Source of the DNA: a virus
Reading direction: 5' to 3' (one strand)
DNA length: 35,660 bases
UHGV virus genome: UHGV-0200663
The notes under the pieces are model-generated. The model worked only from the letters and a program-made list of their open reading frames with translations. It did no database searches and was not told where the DNA came from. The stretch's first letter is position 1; the number at the start of each line of letters is the position of its first letter. Of the stretch, positions 1,070 through 35,660 are shown piece by piece. The position numbers were made by a program, and so were the translations under genes.

Positions 1070-1672
1070 TTAATCACCGACAGTTAACGCTCTCACCTCG
1101 TCCAGTATGGACAGCCGGGAAAGCTGCTCCTTCATTTCACGCTGGCGCTGATAAATCCCGTCATTGCGATCGACCTGTGCCTGCGCCATTGCTGTCGCCA
1201 GTTCTTCCAGTTCCGGCATTGACAGTTTCACCTGTTGATTATCGGCGTCACCCCACGTCATCACGTCCCGCGCTGTGTCAGATTTCGCCGCCATTACCAC
1301 AGGATAAAGACGGGCCAGTGAGTCGGGGCCAGCGTTCCAGGTGCGACCGTTCCATTCGAACGTGAACGGCTGCGCTTCCTGTTCTGTGCGCCACGCCTCG
1401 ATTTCCATCTTTTTGGCATCTTTTGCCGCTGCGATAAGCTCCGGCGTGATGGTGAACGGGGCGATTTCGCCCCATTTGCCGCTTTGCAGTTCCTGCCAGA
1501 TGCGCTTACCGATTGTTGATGTATCATCAGGAGTGGCAGTGTAAGGGACTGGCTGCGGCTGGCCGTCAAACCAAACGTCACAGTCTACAGCGCTATTTTC
1601 TGTATAGCGGGGATTAATGATTTCTTTGATTTCCACGATGCATTCCTCACGCTGTGCGAATAAAAAGCCCAA
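1070..1672 (-). CDS. Tail fibre assembly chaperone (second cassette)
   Basis: Immediately downstream of the long fibre gene. ORF-track start at 1672 is TTG; a GTG at 1636 preceded by GAGGAA is a plausible true start. Family call is by position and size only. Confidence 0.5.
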   Translation of the reverse strand: MGFLFAQREECIVEIKEIINPRYTENSAVDCDVWFDGQPQPVPYTATPDDTSTIGKRIWQELQSGKWGEIAPFTITPELIAAAKDAKKMEIEAWRTEQEAQPFTFEWNGRTWNAGPDSLARLYPVVMAAKSDTARDVMTWGDADNQQVKLSMPELEELATAMAQAQVDRNDGIYQRQREMKEQLSRLSILDEVRALTVGD

Positions 1673-4600
1673 TCATCGCGTCGGAACCATAGGTGTTTGT
1701 TACCCCGGACAGGGCGCGATATGTACCCGGTAATGAATGACCTGCATTTCCCATAACGTAGAATTGCGGGCTTGATGAATACGTTCCGGCTGGATTGTAG
1801 GGCGCTGAAATTCCCACCGGCCCCAGCCGTGAGCCTGCGTAATATTGCCCTCTCACAAGCTTGATTTTTGTATCTCCGTCAGTCGTTCCCTGGTATGCAG
1901 CAATAATCAGTCCACCAACATCAGGGTCTCCCCACTCATTGCTGATGGTCCCCCCCATAACATTATAAATATCGGCTGTGGATATCTTTATTCGCTCCCA
2001 GCCAACAAGACGCCCGTAAATATATCGGTTAAACCAGATATCACCGTTTCCTGCATAAAACATTATGCATTTTGCAGCATCTGACGGGGGCTTTGTTTCG
2101 TACTGGTTCATCTGCCAGATAACATCAAGAATACCCGTAAAATAAACACCAGGTATGATTGTTCCCTGATTAGGGACGGTTACCGCATAACGTCCCGGAT
2201 AAGCGTTTGTTACCCACGTGGTCAGCTCCGATGTGTTTTTAAAGGTGAGCTGGTCTTCTTTTCCAAACGGATAACCAAATCCGAATGCACCAGGAAGAGC
2301 CAGTTTATCTTCCGCCCGGTCATAAATATCACTCTGGGCGCTGTACGTATTCTTTTGCAACTCAAGAACAGACAGCATGTCTTCCGCTGTAGTCTGAGCA
2401 AGCAGCAGCCGGGCTTTTTCTGACAGTGGAGACAGTGAAGCATTCCCGTCCTGATTAAAGCACAGAAGATTATCTGCCCGTTGCGTCAGTTCACTGATAG
2501 CCGTCAGCACATCGTTCAGCGGTTGTTTACCGGCCAGCGCGTTCATGATTGTCGTCGCAAAGTTCGGGTCATTACCCAGCGCCGCTGCCAGCTCGTTCAG
2601 CGTGTCCAGGGCTTCCGGTGACGAGTCAACCAGTGCAGCAAGCAGTTTGCGGACAAACGCCGCATTGGCTATTTCATTACCTGCTGCATCATCTGGTGGT
2701 GTTGGCGTGGACGGCGTTCCGGTCAGTGTCGGACTGTTCAGTGGCGCACGGGTTTCAATCAGTGCCCGGAGTGAAACCTCGTTGACTTTCAGGTTTTCCC
2801 AGCCAACCAGATAACCATCTCCGGTAGTCCAGTAGCGATTGTAATAAATGTGGCCGTTAATACCGTAAAAAATAATGATTTTAGCCACACATGCCGGATT
2901 GGGGTTGGTTTGAGGTTCCGGCCAGATAATTTCAACGGTACCCTTGAACAGCACGCCCTGTATTACCGCATTTGTATCTGCATAAACGGCATAGCGTCCG
3001 GGTTTTGCCGTTTTTACCCAGCGGAGAAAATCGGCCTCTGTTTTAAACTCGGTCCTGTCGCCGCTGGAAAATATTTTCCCGAATCCGAACATGCCAGGAA
3101 CCGCCAGACGGCCTTCGGTGCGGTCGTAAATACTCTCCTGCGCATCCTTTTGTGCTGCATTGCCCAGTTGTGGCGTCAGATTCGTCCAGGTGACCGGGGC
3201 GGAGATATTATCGCCACGAACGGTCATAAGAATCCGTCCGTCTTTTCCAAAGAACAGAACCAGCTTTGTTGCTGTCTGACTGGTTTTGTCGCCCCGGCCA
3301 TTATCCAGCCAGATAATTTCTGTTATTCCGGTTGTTTTTTCCGTTTGTGTGGAAAAGGTGTAATACCGTCCCGGGTGCAGGTTGTGAGCGGTTCTGGCTA
3401 CAGTCGCCATATCGCTGGCAATAATTGAACGTGCTCCGGCGTCCGTCATTCCGTAACCATACGCACCGGGAAGCGCAACACGGCCTTCCATGCTGTCGTA
3501 AAGGTCTATCTGAATATCCCTTACCGCTGCGCTTTTCAGCTCAAGCTCATTGCGCATGGCTTCCGCTGTGGCCTGTGCCAGCAGTGACCGGGCTTTTTCT
3601 GACAGCGGAGACAATGAAGCATTTCCGTCATGATTAAAGCACAGAAGATTATCTGCCCGTTCTTCCAGATTACTGATTGCGGTTAACACGTCACTGAGTG
3701 GTTGTTTACCCGCCAGCGCGTTCAAGATTGTTGTCGCAAACTCCGGGTCATTGCCCAGCGCCGCTGCCAGCTCGTTCAGTGTGTCCAGGGCTTCCGGTGA
3801 CGAGTCAACCAGCGCAGCAAGCAGTTTGCGAACAAATGCCGCGTTCGCCATCTCCAGCCCGGTCGCATCGTCCGGCGGGGTTGGTGTGGTGGGCGTGCCG
3901 ATGAATGCCGGGCTGTCCAGTGGCGCTTTTGTTTTCGTCTCGTCCATGACGGTTTTGACGGCTTTTGGCGTGGCGGCCAGTTCTTCGCTGTCGTTGTCTG
4001 TATCACTACAGAGTTGCACCAGGCCTTTTTGCGTCGTGCTGGCGTTGGTTCCCTTCAGGTCATCAACTATCCGTTGCGCCTCGTCCCTGTGCTGTTTCGC
4101 GCTCTGCTCGCTTTTTGCTGCCGCTTCGGCGCTGGCTTTTGCCTCACCGGTCAGCGTTGCGGCATCAGCAAGTTTATCGACCGCTTTCTGGACTATCTTA
4201 TCGGCATCTTTGACCGCCTGTTCTGCCCGGGCGGCATTCTGGTTGGTCTCAGAGGCCAGCTCTTCAGCTTTCTGCACATTACCCGCGATTTCTTCTGCAT
4301 CCTGCTGTATTTCCCCGGCGAGCGCTTCTGTATCCTGGCGGGCCTGTTCAGCAGCGGTGGCGTGCTCTCCTGCTTTTTCTGCGCTTTGCTGCGCCTGTTG
4401 CGCCAGCTCTTCGAATTTCTTCAGGGCTTCCGGGCGCAGGTCAATATCGGTTGCGCCCAGAAAATCATTCAGCGAACCGTCCGCTGAATCTTCATAAACG
4501 CGGATGACACCGATTTCTGAAAGGCGCTGTGTGCTTTGTGTCAGGCGAACGCTGTACACACCCGGCAGAACGGTGAAGTCATATTCCCCGTTCTGTGTGG

Positions 4601-4721
4601 TGACATGGCTGAAAACACTTTTCAGAATCCCTGCACGGTTGTGCAGGGAGGTCAGTGTAATGGTTGCGCCACCCAGCGGTTCTCCCGTGGGCGTTTTAAT
4701 CACACCTTTAAGCTGCGGCAT
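1647..4721 (-). CDS. Long tail fibre protein, lambda Stf / P2 H family, with internal repeats
   Basis: N-terminus (..GVYSVRLTQ..IRVYEDSADGSLNDFLGA..RPEALKKFE) resembles the lambdoid side-tail-fibre N-terminal domain. Two copies of ATPKAVK..KAPL.SP..GTP.TPTPPDD..ANAAFVRKLLAALVDSSPEALDTLNELAAALGNDP..ATTI.NALAGKQPL. Three xxEGRLAxPGxFGFG modules. ATG at 4721 with GGAG 8 nt upstream. Confidence 0.8.
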   Translation of the reverse strand: MPQLKGVIKTPTGEPLGGATITLTSLHNRAGILKSVFSHVTTQNGEYDFTVLPGVYSVRLTQSTQRLSEIGVIRVYEDSADGSLNDFLGATDIDLRPEALKKFEELAQQAQQSAEKAGEHATAAEQARQDTEALAGEIQQDAEEIAGNVQKAEELASETNQNAARAEQAVKDADKIVQKAVDKLADAATLTGEAKASAEAAAKSEQSAKQHRDEAQRIVDDLKGTNASTTQKGLVQLCSDTDNDSEELAATPKAVKTVMDETKTKAPLDSPAFIGTPTTPTPPDDATGLEMANAAFVRKLLAALVDSSPEALDTLNELAAALGNDPEFATTILNALAGKQPLSDVLTAISNLEERADNLLCFNHDGNASLSPLSEKARSLLAQATAEAMRNELELKSAAVRDIQIDLYDSMEGRVALPGAYGYGMTDAGARSIIASDMATVARTAHNLHPGRYYTFSTQTEKTTGITEIIWLDNGRGDKTSQTATKLVLFFGKDGRILMTVRGDNISAPVTWTNLTPQLGNAAQKDAQESIYDRTEGRLAVPGMFGFGKIFSSGDRTEFKTEADFLRWVKTAKPGRYAVYADTNAVIQGVLFKGTVEIIWPEPQTNPNPACVAKIIIFYGINGHIYYNRYWTTGDGYLVGWENLKVNEVSLRALIETRAPLNSPTLTGTPSTPTPPDDAAGNEIANAAFVRKLLAALVDSSPEALDTLNELAAALGNDPNFATTIMNALAGKQPLNDVLTAISELTQRADNLLCFNQDGNASLSPLSEKARLLLAQTTAEDMLSVLELQKNTYSAQSDIYDRAEDKLALPGAFGFGYPFGKEDQLTFKNTSELTTWVTNAYPGRYAVTVPNQGTIIPGVYFTGILDVIWQMNQYETKPPSDAAKCIMFYAGNGDIWFNRYIYGRLVGWERIKISTADIYNVMGGTISNEWGDPDVGGLIIAAYQGTTDGDTKIKLVRGQYYAGSRLGPVGISAPYNPAGTYSSSPQFYVMGNAGHSLPGTYRALSGVTNTYGSDAMIGLFIRTA

Positions 4722-5252: not shown

Positions 5253-6062
5253 TTAGCCGGATACCGTGCGCCATCCGCCATTGATATAAATCTGAGTTTG
5301 TTTGTAATACACGCCGCCGATGTTATCCGCAGAGCTCCTGCCAGTATCCTGAACGTTAATACCTGACAAAATACAACCTGAAGGCGCGCGAAATACCCAG
5401 GAAATTTCGTTACCACCGGGATTGTGAAACACTTCGCTGGTGTATCTGAAATCACGCACAGCGCCGGAATCGGTGCTGCTGATGGTGATATCGCTGGTGC
5501 CATCAAACAGCACATTGTTAATCCTGCGGGCCGTCTGAAGCCGGGTTGCCGTTCCGGCATTGCCACTGATGTTGCTGATGGTGATATCCGAAGACAGGGC
5601 CATGCCGTTGACCCTGCGGGTATTCGGTACAGCACTATTAGCTTTATTTACCGTGTCACGTAATGAAAGTGCGTCGATAATTTCACTGGCTGTGTTTTTC
5701 CCGAGAATACCGCGCACAAAAGCACTGAGCGGCGTTAATGCCATTGTGTCTTCGCCCGTAAAATACGGGAACGTATTATTCTGACCGGTTAATCCGGCAA
5801 TAGCTCCGGCTGAACCACTGTTCGTAATAAACAGTTTTTTCAGCGCCGTCATAATCTGGTCGGTGGTGTTTTTATCCGGTTTGATATTTGCCTGCCGGAG
5901 AATTTCCAGCAGTTCGGACTGAATAATATTAAACCAGTCCGGCCCCGGATAGGTGGGCGGAATACCATTCCCGCCTTCGGTAAAATAAAGCGTTGTTTTG
6001 CTTAATTCAGCCGCGACAGGTGGCATCACCGGCACACCCGTCGGATTATCCACATGAAACAT
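5253..6062 (-). CDS. Short tail fibre protein (Mu S / P2 H-like)
   Basis: N-terminus MFHVDNPTGV...; internal FPYFTG motif and C-terminal ..YINGGWRTV resemble P2 H / Mu S family fibres. ATG at 6062 with GGAG upstream. Confidence 0.65.
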   Translation of the reverse strand: MFHVDNPTGVPVMPPVAAELSKTTLYFTEGGNGIPPTYPGPDWFNIIQSELLEILRQANIKPDKNTTDQIMTALKKLFITNSGSAGAIAGLTGQNNTFPYFTGEDTMALTPLSAFVRGILGKNTASEIIDALSLRDTVNKANSAVPNTRRVNGMALSSDITISNISGNAGTATRLQTARRINNVLFDGTSDITISSTDSGAVRDFRYTSEVFHNPGGNEISWVFRAPSGCILSGINVQDTGRSSADNIGGVYYKQTQIYINGGWRTVSG

Positions 6063-8686: not shown

Positions 8687-9747
8687 GTGGCCACCGCCTT
8701 TGTTTTCTTCGTCTTCGCTTTCATTTCCGGCATATCCAGTGATTCAGGCGGAACCAGCGCCAGAACCGTCATCCGCCCCTGTGCGCCATCCGTCCAGGTC
8801 ACCCCGGATATCAGCCAGGTGGTTTTCAGGTTCTGAATGCTGTCGTCGATATCGACAAGGCGGTTGGTCTGCCACAGCGGGCCGCTGTCGCCCTGTTCGC
8901 GCCAGCCTGCCACCGTGATTTCCGTCGTGCGGGATTCCCCCAGCATCCGGGCTTTGTACCATTCCCCGCGAATGCTGGCCCCGCCCACGGTCAGGCTGTC
9001 TTCATTGACCAGAATGCGCGGGCGGTAACGGTTAATTTCCGGGTCTTCGATGATGTACTGGCGACCACCCACCATCGAGGCAGGCTGGCTGTCCCACAGT
9101 TTGCCACCGGCACTGGTGGTGCCCTTGATGATGTACTGGCTGTTACGCTCCCGCCAGCTGAAGCGCCCACGGGCAGCGAGGATATTTTTCCCCAGCACCA
9201 GTGACACACCCGCGCGAACGGAAGAGGCGCGGGTGATAATCAGGTTACCTGCGCCGTCAGACGTCAGCAGAACGCCGCGCTGTTTTGCCAGCCGGTCGAG
9301 CAGTTCAAAGCCCGTTTCACCCTGTTCCAGAACAACGGACGCAAACGCCTCCCCGGTCGGGGTTTCCGTGATGACAGTTATCCCGAACGGGCGGCAGACA
9401 TCAGCCGCCACCTGTTCAAGCCGCACGCCTTTCCATTTCCCGGACGAATGCACCACAGAGCAGTCCACCAGGTCGCCGGTTTTGTCGCGCCCCATGACAC
9501 GAATTTCCACATTGTCCGCGTCATAGCTGGGAATAAAATCATCGATATACCCCGTCAGCACGGTATCCGCGCCCAGCCTGACCGTGCAGGGTTGCCCCTC
9601 ACGAATCACGCGCGGTGCCGCCGCTGACCAGCGGGTTGTCACACTGAGTTCAAATTCACCGGCAATCGCCTTCAGGGAACGGCTGATGGACATTTCCGTC
9701 CAGCCTTCCCACAGCTTGCCGTCAACGGTAAGAATCACGGATTCCAT
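8677..9747 (-). CDS. Tail/baseplate hub protein (Mu gp44-like, P2 gpD-like)
   Basis: 356 aa; follows the DNA circularisation-like gene as in Mu. Confidence 0.55.
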   Translation of the reverse strand: MESVILTVDGKLWEGWTEMSISRSLKAIAGEFELSVTTRWSAAAPRVIREGQPCTVRLGADTVLTGYIDDFIPSYDADNVEIRVMGRDKTGDLVDCSVVHSSGKWKGVRLEQVAADVCRPFGITVITETPTGEAFASVVLEQGETGFELLDRLAKQRGVLLTSDGAGNLIITRASSVRAGVSLVLGKNILAARGRFSWRERNSQYIIKGTTSAGGKLWDSQPASMVGGRQYIIEDPEINRYRPRILVNEDSLTVGGASIRGEWYKARMLGESRTTEITVAGWREQGDSGPLWQTNRLVDIDDSIQNLKTTWLISGVTWTDGAQGRMTVLALVPPESLDMPEMKAKTKKTKAVATWD

Positions 9748-16455: not shown

Positions 16456-16892
16456 CACAGCACCCCTTTCAGGTTGTTACGGGTGAACAGCCGGGCATTG
16501 GCACCCACTACAATGATCTTCCCGTGGTCGGTTTCTGCCGGGGTGGCATACGTCGGCAGACCCAGGTCACGGGTGCCGTTCGCCATCTCACGCAGGGTTT
16601 TAATGGCGTCATCGTAGCGTTTCTGGATCAGCTCCGTGATTTGATTGTCACGCTCTGACAACCAGTAAAACGCCAGCGATACCGCCACGCGTTGCAGCGG
16701 GCGCGGGATTTCCGTCACCCCCAGCGGCAGCTGGTAGCGGCGGGACAGAAACGAATCAATTTCCGCTTCGGCATCACTGATGGCCTGACGGATTTTGTCT
16801 TCATCCAGTTCGTTGGTTTCCCGGTTAATCGCCATGTTCCAGACAAGATTGCCGTCCGCGCGTAACAGGTCTTCCTGCGTGATATACCCCAT
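16455..16892 (-). CDS. Head-tail connector region protein (Mu gp36-like position)
   Basis: 145 aa; ATGA overlap coupling. Confidence 0.45.
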   Translation of the reverse strand: MGYITQEDLLRADGNLVWNMAINRETNELDEDKIRQAISDAEAEIDSFLSRRYQLPLGVTEIPRPLQRVAVSLAFYWLSERDNQITELIQKRYDDAIKTLREMANGTRDLGLPTYATPAETDHGKIIVVGANARLFTRNNLKGVL

Positions 16893-17257: not shown

Positions 17258-17281
17258 GGGTTACAGATTACGGATGACGGG

Positions 17282-18184
17282 TTATGCCGGGGTGGTGATG
17301 AACGGACTGACCACGATGTCCACATCCTTGTACCAGATGTTGGAATCGCCGCCGTTAACCAGCATGGCGTCAATGATGCGCTTCGCGGCTGCACGGTTTT
17401 TCTGCCCCACCACAAGGGTGGTCGGGCGGATGCCCAGCGGTTCACCGTTGGTGGTCTTCATACCCAGCAGCAGATTGCTGGCCTTCTCGTAGTTCTCCGC
17501 TGTCAGTGCCGCACGGGAACCGACGGCGGTCTGCCAGAAGCCGAAGCCCGCATTGCAGCGACCGTCCACCCCGTAAAGGAACTCGTTATTCTTGAAGGTA
17601 TGCTCGCTGTTCAGATCATCCAGGGCTTCAAACTTAAAGGCGCGTCGCGTCTGCCAGATGATGGGTTTCAGTACCTGAGAATCATCAATCAGAAACCACG
17701 GTTCCCCCTGGTCTGATGCCGGGGTGCCGACAACGTTGCTGCAGGTGCCGTCGCCCAGCGGGTGGTCTTCATCAAAGAAGTTCTGACCGTCAAAACACAG
17801 GGTGTTAAACCCGGCACACAGCAGGGGGTAACACAGCTTGTCCGGGAACTCCGACGTCTGGCGGCCATAGCGTTCAGCGATAATGCTGTACTGACCAATC
17901 TGATCGTCTTCAATGTGTTCGCGTTTAACGCGGATCGAACTTTCCCAGGTTTTGTTCGCAAGGGTGTAACCATAACCGTCCAGCGTTGCCATCTGACGGG
18001 CGCTGACCCATTCCTTAATCTCCGGTAAATCTTTCATCCAGCCGTAGGTATTGGAGGCGGACGAACTCGGGATTTCAGAGGCGATGCGCTGCCACTGTGG
18101 GGTGACACCACTCAGACCACGGGTATAAGCGGCGCTCAGACAGGTGGTCAGCGCGTGAAGGACTTCGGAAGTGACTGCTCCCAT
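17282..18184 (-). CDS. Major head (capsid) protein, Mu T-like
   Basis: 300 aa immediately downstream of protease/scaffold gene; ATGA overlap. Confidence 0.7.
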   Translation of the reverse strand: MGAVTSEVLHALTTCLSAAYTRGLSGVTPQWQRIASEIPSSSASNTYGWMKDLPEIKEWVSARQMATLDGYGYTLANKTWESSIRVKREHIEDDQIGQYSIIAERYGRQTSEFPDKLCYPLLCAGFNTLCFDGQNFFDEDHPLGDGTCSNVVGTPASDQGEPWFLIDDSQVLKPIIWQTRRAFKFEALDDLNSEHTFKNNEFLYGVDGRCNAGFGFWQTAVGSRAALTAENYEKASNLLLGMKTTNGEPLGIRPTTLVVGQKNRAAAKRIIDAMLVNGGDSNIWYKDVDIVVSPFITTPA

Positions 18185-19146
18185 CAGTTATTCTCCTGTT
18201 TAGGTTTAGCGGCGAGGAACTCTTCCCCGGTAATACCCATGCTGCGGCACATCGCCAGTTCGGCGTCGGTCAGTGTCTGCGCGGGTTTATCCTTGCCCTG
18301 GCTGGGCTTGTCGTTGTTCACCAGCGGCTGTGCACCTTTGGTGTACTCCGCAAACTGTTTGCGGCCTTCTTCCGTGCGGCAGGTGGCAAGGAACATGTCA
18401 CGGTTTGCCGGGGCCACTTTTCCGGCTTCGATGGCCGCATCCACAAGCGCTTCTGCTTCCTTCTCTTCCAGTTGCTGAAGGCGTTGTTCTGCGGTTTCGG
18501 CACGGTTCAGTGCCAGATTGTGGGTTTCCACCGGTACAAACTTCGTCAGGTCAGGTGTCTGTGCGCGGTTCAGCGCCACCTGTTCGTTCTCCTGAAGTTG
18601 TTTAATGGCGGCCACGGTATCGTCCACCGTGGCAGATTCAGCCAGCCCAAGCAGGCCGGTGATTTGCACAGGTACTGTCATCGGGTTTTTCTCCGTATTC
18701 AGTGCAGGAAAGTCCAGATTAGGTTTGTTGGTCAGCCCGACGCTGGACAGGCGCGTCACCACACCCTCCGCGTCATGGAAAAACGCCGGGCTGTAATAGC
18801 GGTAGCGGCGCTCGCTCAGCATCCACCGGGCGTATTCGCTCCAGACAACACGGCCTTCAATGGTGCCGCTGTCTGTCACCCGCAGTTCTTCCACCCAGCC
18901 ATACGCCGGGGCTTCATCACCGCGTTGCCCTTTAATTTCGGTGGCGTGTTCAATGTCCACCGGAATTTTGATGTCGGACGAACGGGCAACCACCTCATGC
19001 GGATTGCGGTTAATCCACGTCCGGCCATCGCGCCCGGTGAACTCACCCGCAGGAACGAGTTCAAGCCATTCCGGCAGTTGAGCAGGTGTCAGCTCAGGGA
19101 TGGGTTCTGGCAGGGAAAAACACAGCGCCAGCAGTTCCGGTTTCAT
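18184..19146 (-). CDS. Head maturation protease / scaffold, Mu I-like
   Basis: 320 aa, first gene after an intergenic region with terminator-like hairpins; Glu/Ala-rich C-terminal half. Confidence 0.65.
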   Translation of the reverse strand: MKPELLALCFSLPEPIPELTPAQLPEWLELVPAGEFTGRDGRTWINRNPHEVVARSSDIKIPVDIEHATEIKGQRGDEAPAYGWVEELRVTDSGTIEGRVVWSEYARWMLSERRYRYYSPAFFHDAEGVVTRLSSVGLTNKPNLDFPALNTEKNPMTVPVQITGLLGLAESATVDDTVAAIKQLQENEQVALNRAQTPDLTKFVPVETHNLALNRAETAEQRLQQLEEKEAEALVDAAIEAGKVAPANRDMFLATCRTEEGRKQFAEYTKGAQPLVNNDKPSQGKDKPAQTLTDAELAMCRSMGITGEEFLAAKPKQENN

Positions 19147-19195
19147 GTCAGTCTCCGTCGTCTGGGGTTACCGACGGTCAGTATGCGGAAGGCAG

Positions 19196-19220
19196 AAAAA
19201 AAGCCGGATTTACCGGCTTC
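19196..19220 (-). terminator. Hairpin plus T7 on gene strand (GAAGCCGG-TAAAT-CCGGCTT TTTTTTT), 50 nt upstream of the protease/scaffold ATG; identical copy at 26917-26941
   Basis: Read directly from sequence; 25/25 nt identical to the copy upstream of the endolysin gene. Confidence 0.5.
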
Positions 19221-19242
19221 ACTGAAAACGGGAAGAACCCCC

Positions 19243-19284
19243 CCTTCAAAACCCCTTCAAAAACGCCACAGCACCTTCAAAAAA
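19243..19284. repeat. Three direct repeats of CCTTCAAAA (minus strand TTTTGAAGG), spaced 11 and 20 bp
   Basis: Copies start at 19243, 19254 and 19274, in the intergenic region between the MuF-like and protease/scaffold genes. Confidence 0.5.
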
Positions 19285-19313
19285 GTCAGAATGCACATTC
19301 ACGCCATCAGAAT

Positions 19314-19338: not shown

Positions 19339-19360
19339 AGGGGGATTTACGGCGGGAGGG

Positions 19361-24238: not shown

Positions 24239-24532
24239 TCAGTCCCTCGCACGGGGTTTTTTAACGCCCGGAACGCTGGACAGGCCGTTTGCCACATCCT
24301 CACCGCTGCCGGTGATTTCAGCCACGTAACAGCCGCCCACATCAGACAGACGAACCAGCCCCTGCTCGCGCAGCCATGCAAGCTGGGTGCGCACCACATC
24401 ACGGGATACCTTATGACCGTAGGCCTGAAGGCAGGTCTGCAACACGGATTCATTCGCGCTGTCGCCACAGTCCAGCAGGGAACGCAGCAACACAAGACGA
24501 CGGTCTTCAGTGAGGATCTCTTTCATCGCCAT
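24239..24532 (-). CDS. Hypothetical phage protein (Mu gp26-like position)
   Basis: 97 aa, tightly packed with neighbours. Confidence 0.4.
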   Translation of the reverse strand: MAMKEILTEDRRLVLLRSLLDCGDSANESVLQTCLQAYGHKVSRDVVRTQLAWLREQGLVRLSDVGGCYVAEITGSGEDVANGLSSVPGVKKPRARD

Positions 24533-24825
24533 TATTTTTTTTCCTTTAACTCGTTCTCTAATAACAAATCGCTGATGCGGGATACCTGGCGGATGGATGG
24601 CCCCAGCTCTTTGATTTCTCCCCGCAGGTTGCTGATATCCAGTTGCAGGCGGTGGAACTCATCACGGTCGGGTAAATGGTGTACCTGGCTTTCCATCACC
24701 GACATGCGGGAACGGAGTGAATCAAACTCTTCGCGTTTGACGTAGGTTTTCGCCAGAATCAGCTGAAGCAGGTTTATTCCTGTCATCAGCAATGCCCACA
24801 GAATGGGCCAGTTGGCTCTGATCAT
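24532..24825 (-). CDS. Small membrane-anchored coiled-coil protein (lysis-associated candidate)
   Basis: N-terminal hydrophobic segment WPILWALLMTGINLLQLIL followed by a charged helical region; ATGA overlap with upstream stop. Confidence 0.4.
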   Translation of the reverse strand: MIRANWPILWALLMTGINLLQLILAKTYVKREEFDSLRSRMSVMESQVHHLPDRDEFHRLQLDISNLRGEIKELGPSIRQVSRISDLLLENELKEKK

Positions 24826-25049
24826 TTCCCAGGACACGATTTCCTCCTGTGTTCCCGTATCTGCTGACAGTCAATACAGGTCACCACATCCGGCAGCGCC
24901 GCAAGGCGCTGTGCCGGAATAACGTTCCCGCAGTCATTGCAGAAGCCCCGGCTGTGGGGCGCTTCTTTTGTCCGCGTCTGCCAGGCTTTAACGACGCTCT
25001 GACGTTCGTTCAGAACCACTTCACTGATGCGGTCGATTTCGTCGGTCAT
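24822..25049 (-). CDS. TraR/DksA-family C4 zinc-finger protein
   Basis: C-terminal CNDCGNVIP...CIDCQ four-cysteine motif in a 75-aa protein. Confidence 0.55.
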   Translation of the reverse strand: MTDEIDRISEVVLNERQSVVKAWQTRTKEAPHSRGFCNDCGNVIPAQRLAALPDVVTCIDCQQIREHRRKSCPGK

Positions 25050-25654: not shown

Positions 25655-26055
25655 GAATCCCCCTTATGAAAACGGCGCTGATGTTTATAAAGTGCCGCGC
25701 AAAAGATACCGCCCAGCCAGAACGCCAGCTGATAAGGCTCCTTCAGATAAAGAATGCCGAATGTCAGCATGAAAAAACCAACGGCCCAGACCACCCATGA
25801 CCACACGACAATTCGAAGGGAGGCCGCCCGGAAGCGCCTTTTGGGTTGCAGGCGATAAGGCACGTTACCCAGCTGGAAACTGTGAATCAGGCAGAGTGTC
25901 GCGCCGTATGCCAGCACCATGACCGCAAACGCCCGCCATCCGGCAAAACAGCTCGCCAGAAAAAGCACTGCCGACAGCCCCAGAAACGACCACTGGCACA
26001 ACATAAAGCGGGAGTAAATAACGCGAACAAAAAGACTATTCATTCTGTGCATTGA
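25642..26055 (-). CDS. Small multi-pass membrane protein (holin-like candidate)
   Basis: ATG at 26055 preceded by AAGGAAAAA; at least three hydrophobic segments; within lysis cassette. Confidence 0.4.
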   Translation of the reverse strand, partial: SMHRMNSLFVRVIYSRFMLCQWSFLGLSAVLFLASCFAGWRAFAVMVLAYGATLCLIHSFQLGNVPYRLQPKRRFRAASLRIVVWSWVVWAVGFFMLTFGILYLKEPYQLAFWLGGIFCAALYKHQRRFHKGDSWIR

Positions 26056-26263
26056 GTTTTTCCTTGTACTTCTGGCACTGCCAGAAAATGTCCCGTGTAT
26101 CCACGGAGTTCCAGCCACGCATGTAGTAGCTGGCGTGTGTGCCGTCATGACCGGTATAGTCCAGCGGTTTCGGGGGCGAACCTCCGGCCATGCGGTGCAG
26201 AACCTCCTGACGCAGGCGGTCACGCCGCCCGGCTTTCAGTGAGGCATCCCAGCCTTTGCCCAT
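26036..26263 (-). CDS. Hypothetical small protein coupled to endolysin gene
   Basis: ATG one nt after endolysin stop; 75 aa, no hydrophobic segments. Confidence 0.35.
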   Translation of the reverse strand: MGKGWDASLKAGRRDRLRQEVLHRMAGGSPPKPLDYTGHDGTHASYYMRGWNSVDTRDIFWQCQKYKEKLNAQNE

Positions 26264-26264
26264 A

Positions 26265-26861
26265 TCACCCCCGCGTGGCGGACATGATGCCCAGAGGGGT
26301 ATCGATGATTTCCAGACAGGCGTCGGTCAGTTTTTCCATGCGGTTAAACCAGCCGTTCAGGTATTTACCCTGGGCGGGTTTTGACTTGATGATGTCGGCA
26401 TAAAAGCGGGAACGACGGACAATGCAGCGGGCCAACAACCAGTCCGGGGTGGACAGACTCACGGCCTTACGGGTACGCGGGCCGATGATGCCGTCAGCAT
26501 CCACATCAGCGGCTTCCTGCAAAATTCTGATGGCTTTTTTAACGCCATGCTGAACCGCTGCATCGAACACAAACATCGCCACGCCATCAGGCCACTGGTC
26601 ACATCCGGCAGGCAGCCAGTAATCGCGCCAGTAAATCTGCGCGACCTGTTCGCGGGTTAAATCCTTAATGCGGGTATCCGGTTTGCCGTCGCCGTTGACA
26701 TCGGTTTTGCCGTCAATCACACCGTCGCGGCGGTCAGAAATGCCGTATTTGGTTTCGCCGCCACGGTCAGTGGGGTCATTGACATAGACGCCTTCGATAT
26801 CGGGACGCAGAATGAAATTCAGCGCATGCTCAAAGGCCGGGGGGAATTTTTGATTTTCCAT
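26265..26861 (-). CDS. Endolysin, GH108-type N-terminal domain with C-terminal peptidoglycan-binding-like domain
   Basis: Motif VNDPTDRGGETKYGI near the N-terminus is characteristic of GH108 lysozymes; no N-terminal hydrophobic signal-anchor; first gene after a terminator-like hairpin. Confidence 0.6.
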   Translation of the reverse strand: MENQKFPPAFEHALNFILRPDIEGVYVNDPTDRGGETKYGISDRRDGVIDGKTDVNGDGKPDTRIKDLTREQVAQIYWRDYWLPAGCDQWPDGVAMFVFDAAVQHGVKKAIRILQEAADVDADGIIGPRTRKAVSLSTPDWLLARCIVRRSRFYADIIKSKPAQGKYLNGWFNRMEKLTDACLEIIDTPLGIMSATRG

Positions 26862-26916
26862 AAAAGCACCTGTGAAGCAGATTTAAACGTGGTCTGCTTC
26901 ATGGTGCCGGAGGCAT

Positions 26917-26941
26917 AAAAAAAGCCGGATTTACCGGCTTC
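26917..26941 (-). terminator. Hairpin plus T7 on gene strand after the Mor/C-family gene, 56 nt upstream of endolysin ATG; identical to 19196-19220
   Basis: GAAGCCGG-TAAAT-CCGGCTT TTTTTTT on minus strand. Confidence 0.5.
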
Positions 26942-26946
26942 ATTGA

Positions 26947-27396
26947 TTAAGGGCGTCGTGGCGGACGACGAACGGGGTGAGGCAGGTTCGGGGAGGGGTA
27001 AAACAAATCCGGCTGGTATTTATTGCGCTCCAGACGTCGCATCCGTTTGATGGCCTTGTAGACGGTTTTATACGTCACCCCGTAACGCTGAACCAGTTCA
27101 GGAATATTATGGCCGTTAAAATCACGCCAGATACGCATATCCCGGACAAGATTCTCCAGAATATTCCCCCTCGGAACATAAACCTGCATCCCGCCGATAT
27201 GGCGACAAATCGCCACAACCAGCTCAAGGGAATGGGCAGGGTCTGCGCCAATCCGGGCCAGCTCTTTACGCAGCAGTGCGTTCAGTTCAGAAAGTAACGC
27301 CGGATAAGCGGTGTTTTCCTGGTAATCATGAAGATATTCCAGAACGCTGTCGTCCCGGAGGTCTTCGAATAAATCCTGCTCTTTCATCTGTTTCAT
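26947..27396 (-). CDS. mor: Mor/C-family transcriptional activator (middle/late gene activator)
   Basis: 149 aa in ATGA overlap with the gemA-like gene, as gemA-mor in Mu. Conserved C-terminal region ..HSLELVVAICRHIGGMQVYVPRG...RIWRDFNG...YGVTYKTVYKAIKRMRR.. Confidence 0.6.
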   Translation of the reverse strand: MKQMKEQDLFEDLRDDSVLEYLHDYQENTAYPALLSELNALLRKELARIGADPAHSLELVVAICRHIGGMQVYVPRGNILENLVRDMRIWRDFNGHNIPELVQRYGVTYKTVYKAIKRMRRLERNKYQPDLFYPSPNLPHPVRRPPRRP

Positions 27397-27956
27397 ACAG
27401 CAATTCTCCCGCTGTTTCGTGCACGGGCATACGCACTGGTCAGTGCATCATAGCCGCGCAGCTCCCGCCCAGTTTCGCTCACAGGTAAAGGCACACCATG
27501 TCGGGCAAAGGCTTCACGGATGCAGCGCATATGCCACTGTTTGAGCGTTTCAAGCACAACCTGCAACGATTCCCCGTGACACCATGCCAGCGTGGAAACA
27601 CCCTGACCGCCATTACGTCTGGCTGTCAGGCGCTCAACGTATTTGTCCAGCGCAGCGTCGCTGATATCGGAAACGAAACCATCAAGGAACATCTGCTGCC
27701 AGATTTTGTAAATCTTCTCGCGCGGTGTGACATGCCCCTTAAAGCGACGGCGGGGATGTTTTTTCTGCTTCTTAAAACCGCGCTCTTTCATGGCATCGAG
27801 CACCCGTTCCAGTTGTGCAACGGACAGCTCGCGGCAACTGGTTTTGCCCGTGCACTGCACCAGAAAGGCGCGGTAAGTGTCATCGTCGAGTTGTAGATCG
27901 CGACGGGCGACATGAATTAATTTAATCAATGATGCGCGCATGATGCGTATCTCCAT
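27393..27956 (-). CDS. gemA: GemA-like early regulatory protein
   Basis: 187 aa immediately upstream of and coupled to the Mor-like gene, as in Mu. Confidence 0.5.
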   Translation of the reverse strand: MEIRIMRASLIKLIHVARRDLQLDDDTYRAFLVQCTGKTSCRELSVAQLERVLDAMKERGFKKQKKHPRRRFKGHVTPREKIYKIWQQMFLDGFVSDISDAALDKYVERLTARRNGGQGVSTLAWCHGESLQVVLETLKQWHMRCIREAFARHGVPLPVSETGRELRGYDALTSAYARARNSGRIAV

Positions 27957-28004
27957 GAAGGCGGTGTTGCTGCACCGCCCTGAACGTATTAAAGGATTTG
28001 ATTC

Positions 28005-28400
28005 ATGAAAATTGATCTGGAAATAATGAAAACCATTTTTAACGTTTTAATTGATTCTCCTGACGTATTCATAAAAAACACAGAACTCTCCGATGCTGTA
28101 CCCGACGAGAACGCGCTTTACTTTCACTTTCTGTTAATGCTGGATAATGGTTTTATTACCGGAACAGACCTGTTATCCACACCAGAATCAACAGGCGTTC
28201 ATTCCGGTCGAGACAAGGTTTCTTTCAGGTGCCGGTATATCCGTTTGTCACAGCGCGGTCTGGATTTTGCTAACGCACTGAACCAGCCGAAAATAATGAC
28301 CAGGCTCAAAAAAATCTGCATGGACGCTTCAATGGACATTCTTGTGTCTACAGGAAAATCCCTTATGAGCAACTGGATTCAGGAGCAACTGCACCTGTAG
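28005..28400 (+). CDS. Counter-oriented hypothetical protein (131 aa), candidate moron
   Basis: Only plus-strand ORF in a gap of the minus-strand early operon; ATG with AAGGA 8 nt upstream; visibly AT-richer than flanking phage DNA; 3' end overlaps the convergent minus-strand gene by 38 nt. Confidence 0.5.
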   Translation: MKIDLEIMKTIFNVLIDSPDVFIKNTELSDAVPDENALYFHFLLMLDNGFITGTDLLSTPESTGVHSGRDKVSFRCRYIRLSQRGLDFANALNQPKIMTRLKKICMDASMDILVSTGKSLMSNWIQEQLHL

Positions 28401-30355: not shown

Positions 30356-30625
30356 TTAATGTTTGGCTGCATCCGGGTTATACCGGAATAACTCGCCTTC
30401 GGCTTCCAGCCCAAGTTCTCTGGCTGACTTCAACAACTCCTGGGTTGCTTTTTCAATAATTTCAGGAGCCATGCTCTTGATAATGCCTGCCATCACGTCA
30501 TGCGGTCCGATTTGCTCCTTAGGAGACTGTTCTCCCAGTTGCACACTCATTCCTACAAAGAAACCTCCTTTTTTCTGAAACTCAACATCTTCCATGCGGT
30601 TAAATTCAAAGATTACTTTTGCCAT
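30356..30625 (-). CDS. Hypothetical early protein (90 aa)
   Basis: ATG at 30625 (MAKVIFEF..) with GAGGA upstream. Confidence 0.4.
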   Translation of the reverse strand: MAKVIFEFNRMEDVEFQKKGGFFVGMSVQLGEQSPKEQIGPHDVMAGIIKSMAPEIIEKATQELLKSARELGLEAEGELFRYNPDAAKH

Positions 30626-30657: not shown

Positions 30658-30885
30658 TTAACGCCAGATAATCTGGCAACCATTAAGGCGGGCCGTCCAT
30701 ACGGAACGGGCAACCCCGGATTTATGCTCCATAATCCTGACAGCATTCCTGACAAGCTCCGGTGGTGGGCAGGTGATTTCAAGCACCGGGCGGGCCACGC
30801 CCAGCCAGGATTCGTTGACGTGGCTGCCGCGCTCCTGTAACCAGGTCTTTACTTCCGTTGCCATTTTGATATTCCGTGACATCAT
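30658..30885 (-). CDS. kil: Kil-like small early protein
   Basis: 75 aa, immediately downstream of B with ATGA overlap, matching the position and size of Mu kil. Confidence 0.45.
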
Positions 30886-34859: not shown

Positions 34860-35199
34860 CAACCAGGAATCTAGCTAAAACACGCACTTTCCCTCAAGTA
34901 ACCTAGAGGGTAAGATACTGAAACAACAAAAGCTGTTTTTGATATACGTCATTCGCCAGAAGCCTGGTTGTTATCGGGTTTGAAGCGTTTTTGAAGCTGC
35001 AATTGAAATAATGCGTGAAGCAATTGCTTTTCGTATGTTTAATGAAACAAAAGCCATTTCTAACAATCTTTCGCGTTTCAATGCTTAACGGCTAAAATTT
35101 GCTCTACAGGCTTGCAAGCCCCACCAAATCTAATCCCGTCAAATCCCGAATAATCCAATATCCTCCCGGTTTTTTTCGTACTTCTCGTGAATCAATACA
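34860..35199. repeat. Prophage left end (attL) with transposase-binding sites
   Basis: Minus strand from 35199: TGTATTGATTCACGAGAAGTACGAAAAAAACC...; further CGAAA-containing repeats such as GTTTCATTAAACATACGAAAAG and GAAACGCGAAAGATTG. Confidence 0.75.
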
Positions 35200-35435
35200 G
35201 TGGCATCGACGTTGGAACCAAATCGGAAGTGCACCAGGTGTTGTTTGATATGGCGAAAAAGGGCGTGGCGGTGATCGTGATCTCCTCCGATCTGCCTGAA
35301 GTGATGGCGGTGTCTGACCGGATCATCACCCTTAGTGAAGGCCGGTTAACTGGCGAGATCCACGGTGACGACGCTAACGAAGAACGGCTGATGACGATGA
35401 TGGCTATCAACCACAACGCCCTGAAAGCGGCATAA
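35200..35435 (+). pseudogene. 3' fragment of a host ABC-transporter ATP-binding protein gene interrupted by the prophage
   Basis: Translation ..VAVIVISSDLPEVMAVSDRIITLSEGRLTGE.. is a typical ABC ATPase C-terminal region; the ORF-track start MNQYSG lies inside phage-end DNA, so the gene is truncated at the junction. Confidence 0.5.
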
Positions 35436-35446
35436 CGGAGTTTCTC

Positions 35447-35660
35447 ATGACGCAGATGATTCCTAAAACGCAGGTCCCGGTAAAACGCGTCGGACGCATC
35501 GATCCCATTGCCTTCTTCGAGCGCTTCGGGGTACTGATTTTCATGATCCTGCTGCTGATCTTCTTTCAGTCGCAGAACAGTAATTTTTTCTCTGAACGCA
35601 ATATTTTCAACATCCTGACCGAAGTCTCCATCTACGGGATCATGGCCGTGGGGATGACCT
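35447..35660 (+). CDS. Host ABC-transporter permease (5' part; continues beyond window)
   Basis: ATG 12 nt after the ATPase stop; hydrophobic N-terminal segments (GVLIFMILLLIFF; IYGIMAVGMT). Confidence 0.5.
   Translation, partial: MTQMIPKTQVPVKRVGRIDPIAFFERFGVLIFMILLLIFFQSQNSNFFSERNIFNILTEVSIYGIMAVGMT

Follow-up and report, generated by a model that had tools for sequence, protein, structure and literature searches.

How does a Mu-like phage that carries a single activator of the Mor/C family switch on its late genes? In phage Mu, Mor activates the middle promoter Pm, the middle operon encodes C, and C then activates the late promoters. The UHGV virus genome UHGV-0200663, a stretch of 35,660 nucleotides that was analysed over its whole length (the window), contains a gene for a Mor/C-family protein of 149 amino acids (aa) between a gemA-like gene and the lysis genes. 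The initial annotation of this locus left two possibilities, a cascade simplified to one activator or a late activator encoded at another place, and suggested a profile search as well as alignment of the protein to Mor and C separately. We find that the prophage has one member of the family and two identical elements of the Pm type, at the genes lys and I, and that this arrangement is conserved across genera. Comparison with Mu makes it likely that the lytic programme has two tiers, in which one Mor-type activator would switch on the late genes directly.

A single Mor/C-family gene in a complete prophage

The window contains a whole Mu-like prophage of Escherichia coli on the minus strand, and the features described below lie on that strand unless marked otherwise. 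The Mu-type left end (...CCGGTTTTTTTCGTACTTCTCGTGAATCAATACA; the reverse complement of TGTATTGATTCACGAGAAGTACGAAAAAAACCGGG) ends at position 35199, with host DNA beyond it, and comparison with the end of Mu shows that the window starts at base 4 of the Mu-type right end (TGA, then AGCGGCGCACGAAAAACGCG...). The gene order is Mu-like: repressor, ner, A, B, gam, a gp11-like gene, gemA, mor, lysis genes, terminase, portal, F, I, T, tail genes and com-mom. A prophage of E. coli STEC383 is 98% identical over the 6 kb compared, a stretch that runs from the tail-fibre genes to the repressor plus left end, with the right end outside it. The Prokaryotic Genome Annotation Pipeline (PGAP) names one Mor-family protein in that prophage.

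The 149-aa protein (26947..27396) matches the Pfam family PF08765 'Mor' with E=3.6e-30 and 104.6 bits (cutoff 24.9) across almost the full profile (positions 3-107 of 107). Among the PHROG families it matches 532, 'late transcriptional activator' (5e-41). The start codon of mor, an ATG at 27396, shares 4 nt (ATGA) with the end of the gemA-like gene (27393..27956; Pfam GemA PF06252, 9.2e-33), the last but one of the early operon, and the gap to the endolysin gene, 26862-26946, is exactly 85 bp. The overlap and the 85-bp distance reported initially are therefore correct by coordinates, and the Pfam, PHROG and six-frame searches agree with the claim of a lone Mor/C gene between gemA and the lysis genes.

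To look for a second member, all 797 stop-to-stop open reading frames (ORFs) of at least 25 aa in six frames were searched with phmmer --max, using Mu Mor, Mu C and the window protein as queries. The sole match was 26950-27447, with the next best E-value at 0.08. A hidden Markov model (HMM) built from Mor, C and relatives revealed no second family member over the six frames either (next best E-value 1.3). As a control, the identical phmmer queries find both Mor and C in Mu. The complete prophage has one Mor/C-family member, and the earlier statement that no second activator ORF is present in any frame stands up to the profile search. A 131-aa ORF on the opposite strand (28005-28400, plus strand) was considered as a second activator and rejected as unrelated; it has no Pfam match and belongs to PHROG 585, function unknown. 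This ORF sits between the early genes and gemA, has a promoter-like site (27998-28027) just upstream that overlaps its start, and looks like a moron expressed from the prophage.

Comparison with phage genomes by tblastn gives 63% identity to the Mor proteins of Mu, D108 and SfMu over residues 7-132. The phmmer E-values are 2e-54 against Mu Mor and 1e-16 against Mu C, and the three-way alignment contains 81/128 identities with Mu Mor and 43/134 (~32%) with Mu C. The cryo-electron microscopy structure of C shows DNA contacts of the helix-turn-helix by S110, Q113, Y115, Q116 and R120 (preprint 10.1101/2025.05.02.651988). At those positions the window protein has T108, T111, Y113, K114 and R118, which are identical to Mu Mor and unlike C; HTH_28 and HTH_23 give sub-matches at residues 94-121. 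The alignment also fits the domain plan of the family, in which a Gly-rich beta-strand linker (GGxQxYxPxG) connects an N-terminal dimerisation domain with the C-terminal helix-turn-helix: the linker reads IGGMQVYVPRG, compared with LGGGQVYIPRG in Mor and LGGRQFYIPCG in C. Because the identity to Mor far exceeds that to C and the contact residues are Mor-like, the protein is by sequence a Mor orthologue with predicted Mor-type DNA specificity, not a C-like protein in Mor's place. Separate alignment to Mor and C, as had been suggested, thus gives a clear answer, and the position of the gene agrees with it: mor is the last gene of the early operon after gemA, and a Pm-type element adjoins it.

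One feature of the protein is reminiscent of C. Residues 128-132 (codons 27001..27015) read QPDLF, a C-terminal motif of the clamp-binding type, followed by a 17-aa Pro/Arg-rich tail, so that the motif is not near the protein end. QPDLF is the C-terminal clamp-binding motif of Mu C and the C-terminal consensus of the family, and Mu Mor has QPSLL at this place (PMC12867686). A partial N-terminal motif of the same type, EQDLF (residues 6-10, codons 27367..27381), aligns with TEDLF of Mu Mor and QHDLF of Mu C, with just DLF in register. Mu Mor has only an N-terminal DLF, and that DLF is needed for Pm activation (PMC12867686). The presence of QPDLF suggests a C-like property on a Mor orthologue that would fit a late-activator role; we regard it as a lead only.

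Pm-type elements upstream of lys and I

On the coding strand, the mor-lys gap reads TAA TC AATGA AGCCGG TAAAT CCGGCTTTTTTT ATGCCTCCGG CACCAT GAAGCAGACC...AGGTGCTTTT ATG, and Mu Pm reads TAA AC AGTAA AGCCGG TTAAT CCGGCTTTTTTT ACGTCCTCAA TATCCT G.... The published Mor element is 16 bp long and consists of two 5-bp inverted arms and a G/C-rich hexanucleotide at -51 to -36, centred at -43.5; the footprint of Mor on Pm covers -56 to -36 (PMC4390567, PMC4287176). The sole register that fits this definition in Mu is AGTAA-AGCCGG-TTAAT (9173-9188), which places the start near 9224 and makes TATCCT the -10 hexamer. Column-for-column alignment with this element identifies a Mor-type element in the window, AATGA-AGCCGG-TAAAT (element a, 26929..26944), 2 nt after the mor stop. 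The invariant block AAGCCGGT-AATCCGGCTTTTTTT begins 2 nt past the mor stop in the window phage and in Mu alike.

Element a is overlapped by a hairpin, GAAGCCGG-TAAAT-CCGGCTT, followed by seven T residues (26917..26941), which a terminator scan predicts to be the intrinsic terminator of the early operon. The hairpin folds with -12.6 kcal/mol (z=-3.9), and the Mor-type element comprises its left arm and loop. The layout is alike in Mu, where an annotated terminator (9179-9200) lies inside Pm. The predicted -10 hexamer of the lys operon, CACCAT (26901..26906), is situated 16 nt past the hairpin, just as TATCCT is in Mu Pm, and would place the transcription start near 26893. When the hairpin centre is taken as -43.5, an apparent spacing conflict of 5-6 bp with Mu arises; the published definition of the element gives identical spacing, and the former register was discarded. 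By this alignment the mor-lys gap is the orthologue of Mu Pm. Directly after the predicted -10 and overlapping the putative start, there is an inverted repeat, GAAGCAGA..TCTGCTTC (26874-26900).

A second element of the same type, AGTGA-AGCCGG-TAAAT (element b, 19208..19223), occurs in the 214-bp gap between the F-like gene and I. The window has exactly two copies of the 17-mer AGCCGGTAAATCCGGCT, 7.7 kb apart on the coding strand (26923-26939 and 19202-19218); the chance expectation is 0.04 when three mismatches are allowed. The copies are embedded in a 49-nt repeat (19184-19232 and 26905-26953, 86% identity; repeat family D11). A weight matrix built from relatives only scores the two sites at 44.6 and 44.2, and the rest of the window reaches at most 6. 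With a looser core matrix both sites score 28.9 and the next match 17.8; the same type of matrix finds one site in Mu, Pm, at 29.5 over a background of up to ~17.7.

As on the lys side, a hairpin with seven T residues (19194..19220; found by the terminator scan, with a fold of -12.6 kcal/mol) forms a terminator-like end of the lys-to-F operon, and a predicted -10 hexamer, CATACT (19180..19185), follows 16 nt past it, so that transcription of the I operon would start near 19172. The first gene behind element b is the protease/scaffold gene I (18184..19146), which PGAP calls 'phage protease' in the 98%-identical prophage and which is 58-62% identical in relatives. The core promoter is homologous to Mu PI, with CCGCATACTGAC in the window and CCGCAAACTGAC in Mu, and a MAFFT alignment shows that the block A..ACTG.C.G, ACTG included, is invariant in 9 sequences. 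The Mor-type element of the window and its relatives takes the place of the C box of Mu PI (GCATAACCCCAG). Specificity is strict in Mu, Mor being without effect on the late promoters and C without effect on Pm (PMC4287176). A Mor-type box at the I promoter, together with Mor as the sole activator, is what a direct circuit from Mor to the late genes predicts.

No C boxes of the Mu type (TTAT-N5,6-ATAA or CATAACCC) were found at working distance upstream of lys or I, nor were TTAT-N6-ATAA or CATAACCCC boxes present at either gene. Two CATAACCC strings, at 17279 and 19358, were rejected as C boxes; both fall on stop codons, and neither has a -10 at working distance. With a complete prophage that has no other Mor/C ORF, and without C boxes at lys or I, the initial alternative of a late activator encoded elsewhere finds no support. 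In the early region, palindromes at 30378-30391 and 30722-30734 match the consensus TTAT-N5,6-ATAA of Mu C; such matches are as many as chance would give, and they too have no -10 at working distance.

The surroundings of element b contain further structured sequences. An inverted repeat, CCGTCG..CGACGG (19155-19177), directly follows the predicted -10 and overlaps the putative start. Behind the predicted -10, relatives keep repeats with other sequences (for example GTCCGTC..GACGGAC and CTGCAT..ATGCGG), and there is one at Mu PI (CTGCTCA..TGAGCAG). The two repeats of the window may act as leader hairpins or as DNA sites. In the F-I gap (19233-19300), TTTTTTGAAGGTGCTGTGGCGTTTTTGAAGGGGTTTTGAAGG resembles the region of the strong gyrase site of Mu, TTTTTTAAAACGCGCCACGGGATTTTTAAACCGG, beside the annotated gyrase cut site; the stretch is highly conserved in all relatives (TTAAACGCGCCACGGCGTTTTTGAACGGGGTTTGAACG). 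Just past the F stop, at 19341-19355, there is a degenerate dyad-like string, CCGCCGTAAATCCCC, where relatives have a clean hairpin, GAGGCGGTAATCCGCCTC. This dyad is like the Mor-type element, with a 4-nt loop, and may be a terminator or an extra site.

The first gene behind element a encodes the endolysin (26265..26861), with GH108 and PG_binding_3 domains (Pfam 1e-23 and 3e-17). It is followed by a homologue of Mu gp18 (26036..26263; 68% identity by tblastn, 1.6e-29). In Mu, gp18 is the first gene of the middle operon, and its homologue lies behind the endolysin gene here and in all relatives; middle-operon content of Mu has therefore been merged into the lysis operon. This operon also contains a gene for a DksA/TraR C4 zinc-finger protein (24822-25049), which is kept in all relatives. 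A tblastn search with the zinc-finger protein found nothing in the Mu segment searched. The protein may modulate host RNA polymerase late in infection.

Among the remaining features of the window, the host flank (35200-35660, plus strand) resembles the region coding for the C-terminal portion of an ABC-transporter ATPase, with a permease gene behind it, and the ATPase gene appears to be interrupted by the prophage. The STEC383 relative is inserted in potE instead, which agrees with the random insertion expected of a Mu-type phage. The 1024-aa tail-fibre gene (1647-4721) contains a 300-nt direct repeat (2354-2653 and 3533-3832) with 85% identity and a spacing of 1179 nt, which indicates a duplicated domain. 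An Rfam scan of the window matched no family.

Conservation in relatives and the proposed circuit

A scan of one genome per species revealed ten related loci, in Pluralibacter, Raoultella, Klebsiella, Serratia, Kluyvera and Brenneria, with Mor proteins 66-71% identical to that of the window; the Klebsiella phage Kp4866-3 is an eleventh relative. All 11 have exactly one Mor/C ORF within 10 kb of mor. Their late genes occur in the order GH108 lys, gp18 homologue, membrane protein, holin-like protein, TraR/DksA zinc finger, gp25-like, gp26-like, terminase, portal, F, I and T. Among 5426 complete E. coli genomes, 46 contain the gemA-mor-lys block at a coverage of at least 80%, many of them with an extra gene of ~450 bp between mor and the element. 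The median copy number in E. coli is 1, and some genomes have two to four related copies.

The lys-side element is present in 11/11 relatives, in which one small extra gene separates it from mor. Their copies all share the block GAAGCCGGT(A/T)AATCCGGCTTTTTTT without change; 16 nt on there is xAxxAT, of which A2 and T6 are invariant, and the surrounding DNA is unrelated. The I-side element is found in every relative whose sequence extends to gene I. Its arms vary, symmetrically in some relatives (AACCGG..CCGGTT, AGGCGG..CCGCCT, AAGCGG..CCGCCT), and in the Klebsiella group the right arm has decayed (CCACTT). Several I-side copies have no T-run; all keep GGT(T/A)AATCC and its distance to (C/G)A(T/C)ACT. 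Within each genome examined, the two sites have the same loop variant, either TAAAT or TTAAT. The matched loops fit with one protein that would read both sites; the pattern could, however, also stem from shared ancestry or gene conversion. No correlation was seen between the TAAAT/TTAAT variant and the residues of the recognition helix.

These data lead us to propose the following circuit. The early operon (ner, A, B ... gemA, mor) would end at the hairpin terminator directly behind mor. The 149-aa Mor orthologue would bind the element that overlaps the hairpin and activate a sigma-70 promoter without a -35, from which the lysis, packaging, portal and minor-head (F) operon is transcribed. The same protein would bind the second element 7.7 kb downstream and activate the protease/capsid (I) operon, so that a second activator of the C type would be neither made nor needed. 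The modules of terminator and Mor promoter would insulate each late operon from read-through, and since they would block it, late expression would be Mor-dependent. Through QPDLF, late transcription may be coupled to the replication clamp, as with Mu C. The twin Pm-type elements and their conservation in related prophages thus speak for the simplified one-activator cascade that had been suggested for this locus.

Binding, activation, the start sites and the use of the clamp are inferred from sequence, which weighs against the proposed circuit, as do several findings. The element doubles as a good intrinsic terminator, and the compensatory arm changes in relatives show that the hairpin is selected for in its own right, which could explain part of the conservation. 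The upstream half-sites are AATGA and AGTGA, compared with AGTAA in Mu, and the -10 hexamers CACCAT and CATACT are weak. Relatives from other genera carry the degenerate C-terminal motifs QYSL, QPPLF and QMPLF, and clamp coupling through QPDLF is therefore not clade-wide. Scans with the weight matrices found no Mor-type element for a P-type tail operon or upstream of com-mom. The tail operon and com-mom are C-dependent in Mu, and with both lacking the element here, the late genes cannot yet all be explained by one activator that acts through it. By its sequence, the module is best seen as a putative dual-purpose terminator and activator site, as in Mu.

The tail genes are probably read from the I promoter. 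At the aligned position inside the N gene there is no homologue of Mu PP. A third match to the element, 5783-5799 (score 17.8), was rejected, as it lies inside a tail gene, is mutated in the STEC383 copy, and equals the background in Mu and in host DNA. The genes com (~853-955) and mom (115-852) are situated at the right end of the prophage, close to two closely spaced GATC sites (~1023-1042) that form a Mu-like cluster. The region 115-1075 has no Mor-type element and no clear C box; GATTAAATACCCCC weakly resembles the C site of Mu Pmom, GATTATGCCCC.

Three other explanations were weighed. In the first, the dyads are mere intrinsic terminators, and the late promoters are controlled by a factor outside the Mor/C family that is made from the first Mor-dependent operon, in a hidden two-step cascade. 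The candidates are the DksA/TraR-type zinc-finger protein and a gp26-like winged-helix protein (24239-24532). TraR/DksA proteins bind the secondary channel of RNA polymerase and are not known to be sequence-specific DNA binders, which counts against such a role. Mu also has a gp26 homologue, yet its late activator is C. It is true that both copies are canonical terminators of hairpin and T-run, that the arm changes in relatives preserve the pairing, and that the zinc-finger gene is part of the lys operon in all of them. The sequence is, however, near-invariant across genera in which the neighbouring proteins are just 58-70% identical, and this holds also for the loop T(T/A)AAT and the xGA before it, neither of which a terminator requires. 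In at least four I-side copies the T-run is gone, yet the core is kept, and so is its fixed spacing to the -10. Moreover, the block corresponds to the experimentally footprinted Mor site of Mu Pm (PMC4287176, PMC4390567). We therefore consider a hidden cascade unlikely.

The prophage could also be a defective derivative of a Mu-type phage, in which gp19, gp20 and C were deleted and the late genes are not properly expressed. Such a history would explain how the Mu segment Pm-gp18-gp19-gp20-C-Plys has collapsed to Pm-lys-gp18. But all late genes are open, and relatives from six other genera keep the C-less order with intact ORFs, as do 46 complete E. coli genomes and the deposited genome of a Klebsiella phage. 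In addition, a Mor-type box that replaces the C box at the I promoter points to co-adaptation, not decay, and we judge this explanation very improbable. The third possibility, that the prophage borrows a C-type late activator from a further Mu-like element in the cell or from the host, can hardly be credited: some E. coli genomes do have two to four related copies and the com-mom upstream region weakly recalls the Pmom C site, but most genomes have one copy, the boxes that C would need before lys and I are missing, and a helper-dependent phage would not hold its layout across genera.

Relation to other Mu-like phages

With the two-tier circuit as the favoured reading, the phage can be compared with known systems. 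It shares with Mu the 63% identity of Mor, the position of mor overlapping gemA, the contact residues, and a hairpin 2 nt past the stop followed by a T-tract and 16 nt to the -10. It differs in what the promoter serves: Mu Pm drives gp18-gp19-gp20-C, whereas its counterpart would drive lys, the gp18 homologue, holin, terminase, portal and F. The window contains two elements and Mu one, and the window protein is 20 aa longer than Mu Mor and has QPDLF in place of QPSLL. The predicted role resembles that of Mu C, that is, an activator that works from a site centred near -43.5 on lysis and head promoters that have no -35. The two phages have homologous PI core promoters, and the C-terminal QPDLF is common to both proteins (PMC12867686). 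In contrast to Mu, at ~32% identity between the window protein and C, the window phage has no separate C gene, no C boxes at lys or I, and no detectable P-type promoter. The second Mor/C paralogue on which the three-tier cascade of Mu depends was found neither in the window prophage nor, within 10 kb of mor, in the 11 relatives.

The single-activator architecture is already known and is common among Mu-like phages, as single Mor/C genes are the rule in transposable phages and C-less mor-lys loci have been described in Pasteurellaceae. Among 72 phage records with a match, 58 contain a single Mor/C gene and just 14 contain two (Mu, D108, SfMu and Yersinia Muvirus-type phages). The arrangement of mor followed by a GH108/PG_binding_3 lys gene, without C, was reported for Mu-like phages of Mannheimia and Haemophilus (PMC4553209). 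In Mannheimia 3927AP2 and phiMhaMu2 and in Haemophilus SuMu, as in the window phage, mor adjoins such a lys gene and there is no C. The hosts are different, the Mor of the window is ~30-33% identical to that of Pasteurella phages, and the Pasteurellaceae phages have no com-mom, whereas the window phage does. Promoter elements were not analysed in that description, and the window phage has now been compared at the level of the element. BcepMu, KS10, and the Pseudomonas D3112/Fc02-type and Vibrio martha-type phages each have one Mor/C gene, as the window phage does, at 30-39% identity and with other genome orders and binding sites; in KS10, the protease gene comes directly after gemA-mor (PMC2628397). 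The window phage belongs with these C-less phages by its lys gene directly downstream of mor, the lack of C, and two identical elements that one protein would reuse. In the Pasteurella phage AFS-2018a, a distant phage that has one Mor, the motif TTTAAA(C/G)CACTTTAAAATC occurs at 9606-9626 and 16816-16836, upstream of the lysis and protease genes. This hints that one site reused at both operons may be general in single-activator Mu-like phages.

Since the layout is common and was noted earlier in other genera, the practical importance of the present case is modest. What is added is an enterobacterial clade near enough to Mu to align the Pm element and the PI core, so that the point where the circuit departs from that of Mu becomes visible. 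It is possible, if somewhat doubtful, that the clade keeps the ancestral circuit, with a lone QPDLF-bearing Mor-like activator driving all late operons, and that the three-tier cascade of Mu is a recent elaboration by duplication of the activator. If so, C would be a duplicate that was inserted at the end of the first late operon, the boxes of Plys and PI would have been rewritten from Mor-type to C-type on homologous cores, and Mu Mor would later have lost its C-terminal clamp motif. This would amount to a traceable case of a cascade that grew by duplication, with binding sites and activator evolving together.

Mu is the reference model for Mor/C activators, with recent cryo-electron microscopy and clamp-coupling work. 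A close relative in the same host, in which the Mor orthologue would act directly on lysis and head promoters through the same DNA element, is a natural control for what C adds, be it delay, coupling to replication or promoter escape, and it bears on how the specificities of Mor and C diverged and on whether clamp coupling through QPDLF is tied to the role of late activator or to C itself. Annotators of Mu-like prophages should, on this result, take 'Mor' in most cases as a late activator, not as a regulator of a middle operon.

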